A stretch of DNA of 64,000 bases from Escherichia coli. Lineage in GTDB: Bacteria; Pseudomonadota; Gammaproteobacteria; Enterobacterales; Enterobacteriaceae. The notes beneath the pieces are model-generated. The model was not told the origin of the DNA, ran no database searches, and was given only the letters and a program-made list of their open reading frames with translations. Every line of letters starts with the position of its first letter. Position 1 is the first letter of the stretch. A program made the position numbers and the translations under genes. Positions 35,920 through 42,449 of this stretch are shown piece by piece. The DNA lies in the NCBI RefSeq assembly GCF_024223415.1, contig NZ_CP100500.1; one strand, given 5' to 3'.

Positions 35920-36678
35920 TCAGAAAAGAGAAGATTGCTGTGGAATAGCCGGAACTGCTCCGATCTCTGGAAGCGTTTTACGTAAGTCTTCCCACAGGGT
36001 ATGTACCAGTTCCGGTGCCTGGGCAATGTCTGGCGTATGTAAAAAAAGATAAGGCGTAGTGGTCTGATGCCACTGCGCTAATTTCTGTAACCAGACCTGA
36101 AATAATTCCCGGTTTTGCGTCATATCATCACTACCGATAAAACGGATCAGCGGATTTGTCGCCGTCAGTACAGCATGTACCGGAACTTTAGGTTTTTTTC
36201 GTTGAGCGTCGCGAATAGCTTCACTGTGTGGACGTGCTGCATGAACCGGGCGGCTGTCTAAAATCACCCGATTAACGCCGCGCTGATGTAAACCGCGATT
36301 AAGCGTTTGTTCCTCTTCCCCTTTGGCGAAAAACTGTGGATGGCGGACTTCCACACCATAATTAAATTCGCCAGGGAGAGAATCGAGAAAATGCCAAAGC
36401 GCAGGCAGCTCCCGTGGGCCGAATGTGGCAGGCAGTTGCAGCCAGTATTGCCCAATGCGCGGAGCCAACGGTGACATGCGGGTCAAAAATTCAGTCACTA
36501 AATCATCGCAATGTCGTAATGCTGCCTGATGCGAAATGGTCGCCGGAAACTTAAAACAGAAGCGGAAGTCATCTGTGGTCTGTTCACGCCAGCGCAGGAC
36601 AACCTCGGGTTTCGGCAGGGCGTAAAGCGTGGTGTTGCCCTCCACGCAGTTAACATGACGGGTATTGAAGGCTAACAC
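35920..36678 (-). CDS. yecE: YecE (DUF72) with 5' end altered by prophage insertion
   Basis: Matches YecE from ...NCVEGNTTLYALPKPEVVLRWREQ onward; N-terminus begins at a GTG overlapping the integrase stop; a decayed, stop-interrupted partial copy of the yecE 5' sequence lies upstream. Confidence 0.7.
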   Translation of the reverse strand: MLAFNTRHVNCVEGNTTLYALPKPEVVLRWREQTTDDFRFCFKFPATISHQAALRHCDDLVTEFLTRMSPLAPRIGQYWLQLPATFGPRELPALWHFLDSLPGEFNYGVEVRHPQFFAKGEEEQTLNRGLHQRGVNRVILDSRPVHAARPHSEAIRDAQRKKPKVPVHAVLTATNPLIRFIGSDDMTQNRELFQVWLQKLAQWHQTTTPYLFLHTPDIAQAPELVHTLWEDLRKTLPEIGAVPAIPQQSSLF

Positions 36679-37985
36679 ACTGATTTTAATAAGTTTCTTG
36701 TGTCACTTTGGTGACCATGGGACATCATTGGGACATAATCTGCCAGCTTCTGATTCAGCATTGCGATCTGTTCTGCATTACTGTCAGTCATCCATGCTCC
36801 GTATACATTGAACACCATCTGGGCACTTGCATGGCCCATCTGGCTGGCAATGAAGCTTGGGTTTGCTCCGGCAGATAATGACCAGCACGCATAAGTGTGT
36901 CGTGACTGGTATGCTTTCCGGTGCCTGATGCCCGCACGCTTAATGGCTGTTTCCCATGAGTCGCCAATAGAATCTACCTTGTAGATAAAACCGACCTGTT
37001 TGCTTTTTCTAACCACCTGGGGGTTAAATACGAAAGTACATTCATGGTTCACTGTACGTCCATATTCACGTAGTTGAACCTTGATGTGGTGCTGCTTACC
37101 CAGTCTTGTCATTTCAGCCTGATTTTTCAGGACACTGATAGCGGGCTGGATAAGATGCACAACCCTGTTTGTACTTGCTTCAGTTTTAGGTAGAGTGAAC
37201 TCACCGAGTTTCGTATAATTGCGCCTGATAGTAATTGTTCCTGCTTTCAGATCGATATCTTCCCAGGCCAGGGAGACCAGTTCACCATGACGCATTCCTG
37301 TGTACACAGCCAATGACCACAGGTTTTTCGTCTGCTGATGTCGGCAAGCATCTATCAGGCGAATAAATTCGTCACGAGTTAGCGGATCTGGCTCTGCCCT
37401 GGCTCTTTTAAGAGGCTTAATTCCCTGGAAGGGATTTGCTTCTAAGTAACCGTGATCTGCAGCAAACTGAAACATTCCAGCGATTGTCGTCATGTAATAA
37501 TTTACAGTAACGACGCTCCGTCCTTTTGCTGCTGCTTTGTTTTTCGTTGAATTCTGGTACCCGGTCAGCAAATCTTTCCTGATATACAGCAATTCCTCTT
37601 TAGTTACCGATGACACCAGTCTGCTGCCTCCAATTTTCGGAACCATCGTTCTTGCAACGGATTCATAGCGATTGAATGCATTTGCAGAGATCTCCATTCG
37701 TTTCAGATCCAGCCACTTTTCTTCAAGTTCCTTCACCGTAATTTCTTTTTTACTTACCCCAAAAGCCTGAAGGTTAGGGGAGTCAGGGAACTGTGCAGCA
37801 TAATCAAAGCTTCCTGTGCGGATGGCAAAACATACCGATGTCCGCAGTTCCCCGGCGATCTTCCTGTTCTTGGCAGTGTCAGGGACACCAAGATTTTCCC
37901 TGACACGTTTACCTTTAAAATTAAACCAGATGCGTAATGTGCCGCCGTGGTTTTCGACGCCTGTTGGATATTTGACTTTATCCAT
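36672..37985 (-). CDS. Phage tyrosine integrase
   Basis: 437 aa with tyrosine-recombinase C-terminal region (HASAQMVFNVYGAWM); stop adjoins yecE junction. Confidence 0.9.
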   Translation of the reverse strand: MDKVKYPTGVENHGGTLRIWFNFKGKRVRENLGVPDTAKNRKIAGELRTSVCFAIRTGSFDYAAQFPDSPNLQAFGVSKKEITVKELEEKWLDLKRMEISANAFNRYESVARTMVPKIGGSRLVSSVTKEELLYIRKDLLTGYQNSTKNKAAAKGRSVVTVNYYMTTIAGMFQFAADHGYLEANPFQGIKPLKRARAEPDPLTRDEFIRLIDACRHQQTKNLWSLAVYTGMRHGELVSLAWEDIDLKAGTITIRRNYTKLGEFTLPKTEASTNRVVHLIQPAISVLKNQAEMTRLGKQHHIKVQLREYGRTVNHECTFVFNPQVVRKSKQVGFIYKVDSIGDSWETAIKRAGIRHRKAYQSRHTYACWSLSAGANPSFIASQMGHASAQMVFNVYGAWMTDSNAEQIAMLNQKLADYVPMMSHGHQSDTRNLLKSVC

Positions 37986-38040: not shown

Positions 38041-38277
38041 TCACCCAGGTTGTTTGTTTTTCATTGAAGCGACCCAGGCATCTATTGCTTTTCTGTTATA
38101 CATACATTCACTGGAAGGCTTTGGATTACCGTCTGGTGATACGTGAATATACTCTCTTCCAACCATCCAGCATTCTTTCCGGGCCCGAAGAATTGTGCCT
38201 GGTTTGAGCCCGGTAATTGCGATTAGAACGCTTTCACAAACCCATTCATTGGGAGCCAGTTGAATCACATTGCCCAT
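38041..38277 (-). CDS. Putative excisionase
   Basis: 78-aa ORF immediately upstream of int on the same strand. Confidence 0.55.
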   Translation of the reverse strand: MGNVIQLAPNEWVCESVLIAITGLKPGTILRARKECWMVGREYIHVSPDGNPKPSSECMYNRKAIDAWVASMKNKQPG

Positions 38278-39109: not shown

Positions 39110-39937
39110 TTATTTAACCTGGATAAATGGTGTATTAGCACCGCTGGTCATGTATTGCGGCAGTGTGCCGTTCCATTTATTGATGGCTTCCAGCTCCATA
39201 ACGCCGGGGTTCTGACGCAGAGCTTCACCGCGTAAACGAATAGCATCAGCTTCGGCCTGGGCTTTTGTGCGAATCGCATCAGCCTGTCCGGCAGCTTCTG
39301 CGCGCAACATATTGGCTTCCGCTTCGCGCTGTTTTACTTCCTGCTCGCGCTGCAGTGTTTTCTGGTTCGCCGTGACTTTGGCATTAATGCTGTCGATAAC
39401 TGTTGGCGGGTACTCCGGCTTACCCACATATGAGAGGCTCATTACCTGAATACCGATAGGTGTCATCTCTGCCTGAATGTCTTTAAGAGCTTCATCCAGC
39501 AGCTCAGACTTGCCGCCGTCGATAAATTTGTCAGTGGTCATTTTGCTGGCCAGTCGGTTGAGTGCGTCGGCGATCTTCTGGCGCAGGTCAGTGTCGGTAA
39601 TGTCATCCACGCCTTTGCGGTAGGTCTGAAACACCGTGGTAACTTTGGATGGATCAACTTTGTAGGCCACGCCAATGTGATAGCCGATGGTTGTACCGTC
39701 ACTCATCTGGAAACTGAACGGTTCATCGTAGGTCTTCATTTGTTTGAAGGTGGGGAAGATATAAACTTCAGTATTCCAGCCAGTCCAGTAGCGACCAACA
39801 CCGACCACCTCACCGACGCCTTTGTCGTCGCCCAGTTTATTTACCTTGATGCCAACATTACCTGGTTCAACGCGATCGCAACCGACAAGGCCAATAGTCG
39901 GCAGAACAATGGCTAAAGCAAAAATAATTTTTTTCAT
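39110..39937 (-). CDS. SPFH/band-7 (HflK/C, stomatin, prohibitin-like) domain lipoprotein
   Basis: 275 aa; signal peptide with lipobox LVGC; SPFH-type core followed by a long Ala/Glu/Arg/Gln-rich segment of the kind seen in flotillin-like proteins. Confidence 0.7.
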   Translation of the reverse strand: MKKIIFALAIVLPTIGLVGCDRVEPGNVGIKVNKLGDDKGVGEVVGVGRYWTGWNTEVYIFPTFKQMKTYDEPFSFQMSDGTTIGYHIGVAYKVDPSKVTTVFQTYRKGVDDITDTDLRQKIADALNRLASKMTTDKFIDGGKSELLDEALKDIQAEMTPIGIQVMSLSYVGKPEYPPTVIDSINAKVTANQKTLQREQEVKQREAEANMLRAEAAGQADAIRTKAQAEADAIRLRGEALRQNPGVMELEAINKWNGTLPQYMTSGANTPFIQVK

Positions 39938-40122
39938 CTTTTATCCTTAGTGAAAGAAAGACCCTTGTAAATGGCATAAATGCAGGGCGGGGTCAGAAAC
40001 GCCAGTGCAAAGCCAGAAATAACTGCTATCGTATCCTTCATGGATATAAGGAACGGAACGAGTAATCCGTAAATGCATGCGATAATTGCCAGTAAAATTA
40101 CTATTGTGAAATACAGTCTCAT
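39934..40122 (-). CDS. Small two-TM membrane protein translationally coupled to SPFH gene
   Basis: 62 aa, two hydrophobic helices; stop overlaps SPFH start codon in an ATGA arrangement. Confidence 0.5.
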   Translation of the reverse strand: MRLYFTIVILLAIIACIYGLLVPFLISMKDTIAVISGFALAFLTPPCIYAIYKGLSFTKDKR

Positions 40123-40298
40123 TGGTCTGTGGTATCCCGATATTTTTAACCGACTGACAGCGCAATAAAGAGAATAATGATTTCTGTTAGTGTCAGCACT
40201 GTGGCAAGGATTAAAATCAGTTTTACTCTGTTTAATTCACGGTTGCTTTTCATATAAACGGTTAGTAAAAAACGGAAGAATTATTTTCTTCTTAATAT

Positions 40299-40880
40299 TT
40301 AATGTGTCACTGGCGCTTCTGGCATACCATGAGTATTCAGGTCGTGAATCATTTCATCCAGAAGGAGTTCAAGCCCTTCGCGCCCCATAGCAGAGAGAAT
40401 GAAACCATTATCAGGATCTGCGATGAGCATTTTTTGATAGAGAAACAGAACTCGCCCCATGCCTTCAGTTTCGCCATATTTTTCAATAAATCCCCATTCG
40501 ACATGGTTTTGCAGGGCAATGCGAAGTGGTCCTGGGTATATACTTATGCAACCATGTTTCCCCTTGTAAATAACTGCGCGATCTGTCGTCCCGTTATCGT
40601 TAGGGATATCAATAGTGCCGTTCTTGTCTTCCTCTTCACTGATAAACTTCATCACATACAGCCAGCGCCACTGAGCAACCTTCAGATCGACTGAAAATCT
40701 TCCCAGCAATCCGGCATCATCAGCTTCGGCAAGACATTGCATGATTCTTAAACCGTGCCAGTATGGATTATCGAATTCGCCATCATTAAGCCGCTGTACG
40801 GCCTGAATATAATCAATGGTTGTATTACCAATTTTTATGCCATGTGGCGTTACTTCTGGTCGGAACTCTGAATGATTCAT
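40299..40880 (-). CDS. Hypothetical phage protein (about 193 aa from ATG at 40880)
   Basis: MNHSEFRPEVTPHGIKIGNTTIDYIQ...; no recognisable motif; ATGA overlap with upstream 67-aa ORF. Confidence 0.5.
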   Translation of the reverse strand: MNHSEFRPEVTPHGIKIGNTTIDYIQAVQRLNDGEFDNPYWHGLRIMQCLAEADDAGLLGRFSVDLKVAQWRWLYVMKFISEEEDKNGTIDIPNDNGTTDRAVIYKGKHGCISIYPGPLRIALQNHVEWGFIEKYGETEGMGRVLFLYQKMLIADPDNGFILSAMGREGLELLLDEMIHDLNTHGMPEAPVTH

Positions 40881-41261: not shown

Positions 41262-41627
41262 TTATTGCGCTAATTCTTTTTCGGCAGCAGATTTTGCATA
41301 TTCACATGCAAAATTCAGAATTTCGCTGCCAAGTGTTTTTGTTTCGTGATTACTGGACATATGTAATACCTGTGTTGCATGCAATAAATGATAAACATTT
41401 ACCGCAAATGAGTCCGGCTCCAGACAAATGCCTTCATAATCATCTTGTTGTGAGGTTGTTTCTGTCATTGCTCCTGAAGTGCATGCGAGCCTGTTTTTGA
41501 CAATTCTCTTTCCTCTAATCACTATATCGGCAACATCTATTGCCTTTACAACCTCCGGGAGAAGTTCCGGGTTTGTATAATCAAAGTCATCAACATGGAG
41601 AACAGTTATGTTTTCGAACTTTTTCAT
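41262..41627 (-). CDS. Hypothetical acidic phage protein (121 aa)
   Basis: MKKFENITVLHVDDFDYTNPELLPEVV...; second gene downstream of cI. Confidence 0.5.
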   Translation of the reverse strand: MKKFENITVLHVDDFDYTNPELLPEVVKAIDVADIVIRGKRIVKNRLACTSGAMTETTSQQDDYEGICLEPDSFAVNVYHLLHATQVLHMSSNHETKTLGSEILNFACEYAKSAAEKELAQ

Positions 41628-41755: not shown

Positions 41756-42304
41756 TCACCATTGGTATTGGTTCTTCCGTAGAAGAGCTTCGCGAGATAA
41801 GGAGCAAACTTGTTGAGATGCGTCATGGTGTTGCTGCTCCTCACTTTTTGGTTGCTCCGGAGGAGTAACCTCGCCAGTTAACAGCCACATCGGATCGCAG
41901 CCAAGAATATTTGCCAGTGGGGTAAGCATACTGATAGTTGGTTCATACTCTCCGCTCTCCCACTGGATGATGATTTCTTCATCGAGATCGAGCAGCCTGG
42001 CGAGTTCGGCGGTTGTTAAGCCGCAGGCTTCGCGTTGGGTGCGAAGGTTAACCAGCCAGCTTTTAGGGAAGGATTGTTTTTGTTGTGCAGGAGAAGCCGT
42101 AGATAGAGCATATTCATGGATAAATTCCATTACCTCAATGCCCAGTTCCTTTGAGCGAGCACAATCCAGAAGATGGAATGTGCGTACAGCACTTAGCAAA
42201 TTTGCAATATTTAATGCAAAGGAATCAAGTTCTAAGCCTTCAAGCGTAACACAGCCGCAGTTGATAAAATTAGTTGTTTCTGGAGTTGCTTTTAGTGTCT
42301 TCAT
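41756..42304 (-). CDS. Protein with unknown N-terminal domain and C-terminal XRE-type HTH
   Basis: HTH-like segment LRTQREACGLTTAELARLLDLDEEIIIQWESGEYEPTISMLTPLANILG in C-terminal half; first gene downstream of cI. Confidence 0.55.
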   Translation of the reverse strand: MKTLKATPETTNFINCGCVTLEGLELDSFALNIANLLSAVRTFHLLDCARSKELGIEVMEFIHEYALSTASPAQQKQSFPKSWLVNLRTQREACGLTTAELARLLDLDEEIIIQWESGEYEPTISMLTPLANILGCDPMWLLTGEVTPPEQPKSEEQQHHDASQQVCSLSREALLRKNQYQW

Positions 42305-42449
42305 ATACCCACCAACAATTTTAAATTGAATTTAATCAAGTTATAATTGATGGTGCGATATTATGCTTTGAGAAATAGGCTGTCAAGAAAAAATTGATAC
42401 CGTGTGTTTTAGGCAGAAAAAAACGGGCAAAGCCCGTTAAAATCAAAGA

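Follow-up and report, generated by a model that had tools for sequence, protein, structure and literature searches.

A phage SPFH lipoprotein gene and its translationally coupled two-helix partner gene form a cassette shared by unrelated phages

Why do phages carry genes for SPFH proteins, a family of membrane scaffolds better known from cellular organisms, and what does such a gene gain from a small neighbour with which it is translationally coupled? The question is raised by a lambdoid prophage in a 64,000-nucleotide (nt) stretch of Escherichia coli DNA (contig NZ_CP100500.1 of assembly GCF_024223415.1), hereafter called the window, in which the gene for an SPFH/Band-7 lipoprotein of 275 amino acids (aa) directly follows a gene for a 62-aa membrane protein. 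A 2026 paper describes the reason for the presence of an SPFH gene in a phage genome as still unclear (PMC13239085), and no function was assigned to the Kayvirus protein MbpS or to the SPFH open reading frames (ORFs) of T4-like phages (PMC7150955, PMC1524935). In the incomplete collection of literature that was searched we found no functional study of this family, the available material consisting of speculation in genome papers and a study of the Pasteurella protein PM0222. We report here that the two genes constitute a cassette which travels among unrelated phages, is translationally coupled and is sometimes fused into a single gene, and we tentatively read it as an accessory module that would build a scaffold at the host inner membrane.

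The coupling of the two genes can be read directly from the DNA, as the TGA stopcodon of the 62-aa gene (39934-39936) overlaps the ATG startcodon of the 275-aa gene (39935-39937). Two hydrophobic segments and a basic tail characterise the 62-aa protein, which matches PHROG 1130 at E 2.5e-23 ('membrane protein'), and the 275-aa protein matches PHROG 200 ('lipoprotein', E 2.7e-114), with both profiles thus matched by adjacent and co-oriented genes. PHROG 1130 is filed in the PHROG category 'moron, auxiliary metabolic gene and host takeover', and its members share a motif located between the two helices (G..P.[LM][IV]S[AS].[DS]T), which in the 62-aa protein reads LLVPFLISMKDT. Searches with the 62-aa protein gave no Pfam match at E ≤ 0.001, no NCBIfam match, and no match to a holin family among the PHROG, NCBIfam and Pfam profiles, and neither of the two proteins matched a defence family of PADLOC-DB 2.0 at E ≤ 0.01. 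Neither ORF arose by chance, since RefSeq annotates the two of them in E. coli genomes and the pair is kept in distantly related phages. An earlier note on this DNA had described a lipoprotein signal (LVGC), an SPFH-like core with an Ala/Glu/Arg/Gln-rich helical tail, and an upstream gene with two hydrophobic helices coupled to it by ATGA. All of this was borne out at the positions that it gave on the minus strand, with the tail modelled as a single long helix.

The evidence for a cassette comes from the comparison of phages that are otherwise unrelated. The small upstream proteins of phiP27, the P2-like phage P88 and P1-like phages are only 25-32% identical, and all match PHROG 1130. The N4-like phages MY01, vB_EamP-S6 and QDWS595 have, immediately before the SPFH gene and mostly overlapping it by 4 nt, the gene of a two-helix homologue of 61-84 aa. 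Such a homologue is likewise found directly upstream in the temperate Pseudomonas phage D14B, Pseudomonas phage NV1 and Rhizobium phage LG08, and in Burkholderia phage vB_E174, where it measures 107 aa. The 4-nt overlap itself recurs in P88, MY01, D14B, E174, LG08 and metagenomic contigs. The rV5-like phages SalP219 and Mydo have the PHROG 1130 homologue one gene further upstream of the SPFH gene. Of four further lineages of metagenomic phages, three (the first of these in one of two contigs) have a gene of equal size and layout, encoding two transmembrane helices, directly upstream, and only two of these metagenomic genes score with the hidden Markov model (HMM) of the small protein. Among viral contigs the partner was present at 153 of 157 loci, a count which overstates independence as the loci are redundant and fall into two clades, so that the independent evidence consists of about 15 distinct phage lineages which were inspected singly.

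In P1-like phage-plasmids (MH422554, 3967..5011) the cassette is located at a variable locus between dmt and ban, which in canonical P1 (NC_005856, 11473..12930) is occupied by plp, upl and tciABC. The P1 genes plp and upl were considered as a version of the cassette and rejected, as the canonical P1 Plp and Upl proteins match neither HMM.

In part of the family the two genes have become one. When the family was clustered at 50% identity, 18 of the 142 cluster representatives proved to be fusions of 320-390 aa, which, with one exception, begin with the two-helix domain and continue through a basic linker and a signal-like helix bearing the lipobox to the SPFH protein. For three of the fusions an uninterrupted ORF was confirmed, in phage-like contigs. 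The inclusion of fused forms also explains the length of the PHROG 200 profile, which has 379 positions, with the 275-aa protein covering positions 81-359. The fused forms are dispersed over a neighbour-joining tree, on which their distribution requires at least 15 state changes, and hence fusion and fission appear to be frequent in this family. One metagenomic member of the 18 (P0133) has its two-helix domain after the SPFH domain, with the usual C-terminal motif truncated; this order may stem from read-through into a downstream gene, from reversed gene order, from tandem cassettes or from an assembly frameshift.

With regard to what was known before, the SPFH gene itself is not new: L05 of the Stx2e phage phiP27 has the same sequence as the 275-aa protein (100% identity by tblastn, AJ298298), the DNA of the prophage region is 98% identical to that phage, PHROG 200 already describes the protein family, and the broad class is well known. 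Kayvirus MbpS and the T4-like SPFH ORFs are distant homologues. What appears to be new is the occurrence of a PHROG 1130 gene upstream of a PHROG 200 gene across unrelated phages, together with the natural fusions; a description of either the partner gene or the fusions was not found in the literature collection. The GenBank and RefSeq records of phiP27 (NC_003356) leave the 62-aa gene (3304..3492) unannotated, whereas RefSeq E. coli genomes annotate it. Close relatives of the SPFH gene were detected in 589 of 5426 complete E. coli genomes (about 11%), many of these being Shiga toxin-producing (STEC) or enterotoxigenic (ETEC) E. coli, and 239 of the 694 places in complete E. coli genomes were located on plasmids.

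The nature of the larger protein is clear from profile and structure comparisons. Pfam Band_7 (PF01145) matches residues 22-208 with E 3e-31, covering model positions 2-176 of 176, and an AlphaFold2 model built on 106 diverse homologues has a mean predicted local distance difference test score (pLDDT) of 93.1. A Foldseek search of this model against the Protein Data Bank places HflC (E 5e-14), prohibitin-2 and HflK (E 1.2e-13) on top, followed by erlin, stomatin, flotillin, QmcA and the shoulder domain of the vault, all as full-length matches with probability 1.0; the earlier note had called for structure prediction as a check on the SPFH fold, and the fold is there. When the sequence profile of the family was compared with solved structures, prohibitin-1 came first (E 2.7e-10), then HflK (4e-7), HflC and QmcA, and a search with the single sequence retrieved HflK (E 4e-4) and the coiled coil of prohibitin-2, with which it has a 'GEAL..NPG' stretch in common. 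In the local alignment this prohibitin-like stretch (GEALxxNPG) falls within the long helix of residues 178-242. In the C-terminal motif, W255, G257 and P260 are almost invariant in the alignment of 106 sequences of the SPFH lipoprotein family. The N-terminus reads MKKIIFALAIVLPTIGLVGC followed by D, that is, a lipobox with Asp at position +2, and the anchor is therefore a lipid and not a helix, with a lipobox present in 109 of the 142 family representatives. By its profile match, its fold with the long C-terminal helix, and its N-terminal anchor the 275-aa protein is a member of the SPFH superfamily, within which sequence comparison places it nearest to the prohibitin/HflKC group.

Kinship with HflK and HflC, the host SPFH proteins to which the earlier note had pointed, therefore holds at the level of closest solved relatives, with prohibitin standing beside them, and does not extend to orthology. 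Scores against the curated NCBIfam equivalogs for HflK and HflC (TIGR01933 and TIGR01932, respectively) were 23.1 bits for HflK and 25.9 bits for HflC, versus cut-offs of 159.4 and 134.4 bits, and orthology also fails on architecture, as there is a single SPFH gene with a lipid anchor instead of a K/C pair with N-terminal transmembrane helices. The reported contact of HflK Arg191 with FtsH residues 62-64 (PMC12048511) was considered for mapping onto the phage protein, and this was dropped because numbering and alignment were too uncertain. In many records the SPFH gene is labelled 'putative serine protease', 'transposase' or 'transferase'. Pfam finds no protease domain in the 275-aa protein, and the first label is suspected to have been carried over from a 'protease modulator' or NfeD annotation. 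No transposase or transferase domain is detectable in the SPFH protein either.

Table 1. Coordinates of the gene pair, its sequence features and the surrounding prophage elements in the window.
Feature	Position	Strand	Basis or remark
Small membrane-protein gene, 62 aa	39934..40122	-	ORF list, PHROG 1130
SPFH/Band-7 lipoprotein gene, 275 aa	39110..39937	-	ORF list, PHROG 200, Pfam Band_7
ATGA stop/start overlap of both genes	39934..39937	-	Read from sequence
Shine-Dalgarno sequence AAGGA for the SPFH gene	39944..39948	-	6 nt 5' of the ATG, within the 3' end of the 62-aa gene
Signal peptide and lipobox L17-V-G-C20, then Asp21	39878..39937	-	Translation
SPFH (Band_7) domain, residues 22-208	39314..39874	-	Pfam PF01145, model, Foldseek
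Long continuous alpha-helix, residues 178-242	39212..39406	-	AlphaFold model; counterpart of the coiled-coil wall segment of SPFH cages
C-terminal motif K-W-N-G-x-L-P, residues 254-260	39158..39178	-	106-sequence alignment
cI-like repressor	42450..43145		First in leftward gene order
Product matching PHROG 'CII-like regulator'	41756..42304	-	Same leftward operon
Excisionase	38041..38277
Integrase	36672..37985
Best sigma-70-like site, TTGACA-17-TAATAT	42358..42386	-	Consensus scan; candidate early-left promoter
Terminator-like hairpin	42422..42438	-	Directly after the cI-like repressor gene, ahead of the sigma-70-like site

On which side of the membrane the proteins are located can be predicted with some detail. 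Asp at +2 is the classical Lol-avoidance signal which keeps E. coli lipoproteins in the inner membrane, and it is present in 101 of 105 lipobox-bearing close enterobacterial homologues. Because of this residue, the mature lipoprotein is predicted to be tethered to the outer leaflet of the inner membrane and to face the periplasm, the same side as HflK/C. For the 62-aa partner the fusions are informative: since the partner domain is followed in these by a normal export signal, both of its termini are predicted to be cytoplasmic, with the two helices joined by a short periplasmic loop. The AlphaFold model of one fused homologue has a helical hairpin with helices at residues 2-27 and 32-53 and a loop of four residues. 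The fused forms are predicted to be cut by signal peptidase II, which would restore the two separate pieces.

A comparison with three known SPFH systems helps to place this architecture. With E. coli HflK/HflC, which modulate FtsH, the phage protein shares the fold over its full length, detectable sequence similarity, the long wall helix and, by prediction, the periplasmic location of its bulk. It differs in its lipid anchor, in being encoded by a single gene, in its low identity (about 18%) and in its 62-aa two-helix operon partner, and its comparison with these FtsH modulators is one of family resemblance only. Prohibitin (PHB1/PHB2) is the best profile match among solved structures and shares the coiled-coil motif. 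It forms an SPFH ring in the inner membrane of mitochondria, where it serves as scaffold for the m-AAA protease, and it faces the compartment equivalent to the periplasm. Unlike the phage protein it is eukaryotic, anchored by a transmembrane segment and heteromeric, and it has no small two-helix partner. The SPFH-NfeD operons (QmcA-YbbJ, YqiK-YqiJ and, with an archaeal stomatin, PH1511-PH1510) resemble the phage pair in that they combine an SPFH gene and the gene of a small membrane protein in one transcript, the NfeD partner being thought to sit in the enclosed membrane patch, and QmcA is both a structural and a sequence match of the phage protein. QmcA faces the cytoplasm, whereas the phage lipoprotein must be periplasmic. 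Identity of the 62-aa partner with NfeD was rejected, as it has no match to PF01957 or any other Pfam or NCBIfam family, and 62 residues are too few for an NfeD/OB-fold domain. The phage architecture is a variant of the SPFH-partner operons, distinguished by the lipid anchor, by recurrent fusion and by a partner of two helices which takes the place of NfeD.

Homologues of the SPFH gene reach far beyond lambdoid phages. With tblastn they were found in 737 phage records, in 652 of these at less than 60% identity, and they span Staphylococcus Kayvirus, Enterococcus Schiekvirus, N4-like, rV5-like, FelixO1-like, Bruynoghevirus, phiCbK-like and crAss-like phages, Lak phages and haloarchaeal tailed viruses. 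A representative library contained 3019 SPFH clusters at E ≤ 0.001, and viral SPFH structures extend to giant viruses. Most of the 737 records belong to virulent phages, and many carriers are obligately lytic, with the N4-like and rV5-like phages having the same two-gene unit. As the family, including the two-gene module, occurs in obligately lytic phages, a role specific to lysogeny cannot be its general function.

Wherever its surroundings are telling, the module is found among early genes. It is close to the RNA polymerase and dUTPase genes in N4-like phages, within the P2-like early operon in P88, between dmt and ban in P1-like phages, and between the immunity region and xis/int in the prophage of the window. 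An exception is found in Kayvirus, in whose lysis region the gene of a distant homologue, mbpS, comes after the holin-like mbpV, with mbpV-mbpS located between lysK and tgl (PMC7150955). Distant homologues also adjoin genes for small membrane proteins in Caulobacter phage Ccr10 and Enterococcus phage GVEsP-1.

The prophage in the window is inserted beside a 252-aa ORF (35920..36678), which we tentatively take to be yecE; the closest E. coli genome has the SPFH module at another site. In leftward direction the gene order is cI-like repressor, CII-like regulator, several further genes, the 62-aa and SPFH genes, DUF5406 and DUF4222 (names from the RefSeq annotation), xis and int. On the minus strand no terminator-like site was found between the candidate early-left promoter and the module, and no flanking promoter-terminator pair of the moron type was found at the module itself, in a scan which carries no statistical weight as such sites were no more numerous than in shuffled sequence. 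This layout fits a single leftward early operon which holds the module.

Three further features of this prophage were seen. A 35-aa unannotated ORF with one hydrophobic helix (MKSNRELNRVKLILILATVLTLTEIIILFIALSVG, 40146..40253, minus strand) is located in the 176-nt gap 5' of the 62-aa gene; since the P88 and P1-like cassettes are without it, this ORF is unlikely to belong to the conserved module, and it may not be a real gene. The genes at 41262..41627 and 41756..42304, both on the minus strand, each match PHROG 5451, 4587 and 4836, with the longer one adding a helix-turn-helix region, as would be expected if a gene among the early-left regulators had been duplicated in part. Finally, genes for tRNA-Met (CAT, 52686..52761) and tRNA-Lys (TTT, 52763..52839) lie 1 nt apart on the plus strand, probably in a later part of the same prophage.

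Taken together, these data lead us to a reading which may well be correct, although we would stop just short of calling it probable: the two genes would form a self-contained phage accessory module, consisting of an SPFH ring or cage at the inner membrane and its two-helix partner, which serves early lytic growth in a general manner and is not specific to lysogeny. The 62-aa product would insert into the inner membrane as a hairpin of two helices, with its termini in the cytoplasm and the conserved loop in the periplasm, and the SPFH product would be exported, lipid-modified at Cys20 and held at the inner membrane facing the periplasm. There it would most probably oligomerise into a ring or cage and so enclose an area of the membrane, because it has the full prohibitin/HflK/HflC architecture of SPFH domain, long wall helix and conserved C-terminal segment; to our knowledge, all full-length SPFH proteins of known structure assemble into rings or cages. 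The two-helix partner would occupy the enclosed area or form its lining, as NfeD does for QmcA and FtsH for HflK/C. That the module is found in early regions of other phages, and here in an early-left operon under repressor control, suggests that it acts in early lytic development, following infection or induction. It would then serve as a general means of gaining control of the host inner membrane and not as a regulator of lysogeny. As its target in the host we name the FtsH protease as first candidate, since the closest characterised relatives have the same topology and scaffold FtsH-type proteases, an analogy which makes this target possible though doubtful.

Several observations weigh against this reading in whole or in part. 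Contact between the two proteins is deduced solely from gene order, coupling and fusions, the models from which a cage is predicted are of monomers only, and the early timing is derived from gene position. A weak promoter-like site (9/12, 40310..40283) could represent an internal promoter active in the lysogen. Some distant phage SPFH genes, such as those of Bruynoghevirus DL54, phiEa104, crAss-like phages and HRTV-8, are without a PHROG 1130 partner. With regard to FtsH, the link is one of family resemblance, with HflC and HflK scores far below the cut-offs given above, and the phage protein has neither the N-terminal transmembrane helix of the HflK/C type nor a K/C pair, being encoded by one SPFH gene. 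Distant homologues are moreover found in haloarchaeal viruses, whose hosts, as far as we know, lack FtsH.

Other explanations for the module can be weighed against the same observations. The earlier note had suggested that the phage SPFH protein, located in the operon slot normally holding cIII, could influence the lysis-lysogeny decision. In this case it would mimic or compete with HflK/C and so alter the degradation of CII/CIII-like regulators by FtsH. The closest solved relatives (HflK, HflC and prohibitin), the shared predicted periplasmic topology and the gene matching a 'CII-like regulator' family in the same leftward operon (Table 1) all agree with this idea, and a link between phage SPFH genes, HflK/C, FtsH and CII had already been proposed in genome papers (PMC4936722, PMC8540360), the second of which itself objects that obligately lytic phages carry an SPFH gene. 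It is precisely this objection that weakens the proposal here, as the same two-gene module is present in obligately lytic N4-like and rV5-like phages, in which there is no lysogeny decision to be made. The cassette furthermore moves among lambdoid, P2-like and P1-like phages with unrelated lysogeny circuits, the equivalog cut-offs of HflK and HflC are far from reached, and the cIII slot is a loose analogy of position only, and we therefore consider it very unlikely that a lambda-style control of lysogeny is the primary function. Superinfection exclusion, which the earlier note had named as an alternative, is unlikely too, if not to the same degree. The cage and its partner would change the periplasmic face of the inner membrane and block incoming DNA or ejection proteins, in the manner of Imm and Sp of T4 or SieA of P22. 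This would suit a patchy, non-core cassette of early regions that is exchanged among unrelated phages and encodes products predicted to lie at the periplasmic face of the inner membrane, and the exclusion genes of virulent phages are likewise early and encode membrane proteins or lipoproteins. The presence or absence of the SPFH gene within a single genus (PMC8540360) also agrees with an exclusion function, for which SieA provides an example (PMC10883804). Exclusion proteins are, however, usually specific for one entry route, whereas the SPFH protein is kept across podo-, myo- and siphoviruses with differing entry machineries, the module is apparently in a repressed operon of the prophage, and neither a PADLOC family match nor, in the literature searched, a report of such a function was found.

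A role in lysis timing or membrane integrity, in which the SPFH scaffold would sequester or organise a holin-like protein, or stabilise the energised membrane from injection until the end of the cycle, draws on the similarity of the partner to class II holins in size (about 60-70 aa), its two transmembrane helices and its basic C-terminus. The position of mbpS after the holin-like mbpV, between lysK and tgl (PMC7150955), and the small membrane proteins beside the homologues of Caulobacter Ccr10 and Enterococcus GVEsP-1 point the same way. Yet the prophage of the window, P88 and the P1-like, N4-like and rV5-like phages all have the module in early regions, with no annotated lysis gene nearby in the stretches examined, there is no endolysin gene adjacent in the window, and the 62-aa protein matches no holin family, so that such a role is improbable. 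Most remote of all is lysogenic conversion, in which the lipoprotein, expressed from the prophage, would affect envelope stress tolerance or the interaction of host and pathogen. This has been claimed for PM0222, an HflK/C-like protein of a Pasteurella multocida prophage, whose deletion attenuates, whose product stimulates Toll-like receptors 1/2 (TLR1/2) and which was called a virulence factor (PMC9872710); the precedent applies by analogy only. The PHROG category of the partner and the many STEC and ETEC among the carrier genomes could be taken in its favour. Against this, the module is equally found in virulent phages, which do not take up residence in a host at all, the scan found no moron-type flanking promoter-terminator pair, and stimulation of TLR2 is a generic property of lipoproteins, all of which makes conversion highly improbable as an explanation.

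We thus return to the inner-membrane module of early lytic growth as our preferred reading. It can be taken one step further, although at this point it becomes rather unlikely to hold in full: the pair would build a virus-encoded, periplasm-facing compartment which captures a universal machine of the inner membrane, and with FtsH as the obvious candidate it would be a viral mimic of HflK/C or prohibitin. If this were true, lytic and temperate phages of many bacterial phyla would protect phage membrane proteins or reprogramme membrane proteolysis by this route, and a first function would be provided for hundreds of viral SPFH genes.

For the annotation of phage genomes, it is clear that the labels 'serine protease', 'transposase' and lysogeny marker are widespread and that none of these is supported, and the presence of an SPFH gene should not mark a therapeutic phage as temperate. 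SPFH proteins (prohibitins, stomatins, flotillins and HflK/C) are universal membrane scaffolds, the cages of which have been solved recently and the client choice of which is debated. The phage pair represents a minimal version, with a lipid anchor, one SPFH subunit and one partner of 62 aa, and lambdoid, P1-like and P2-like phages make it accessible to genetics in E. coli. It is therefore a simple system in which the function of an SPFH cage, and its benefit to the phage, can be studied. The finding is of moderate interest and will not surprise the specialist, yet a widespread family of viral genes can be approached through it in a compact and testable form.

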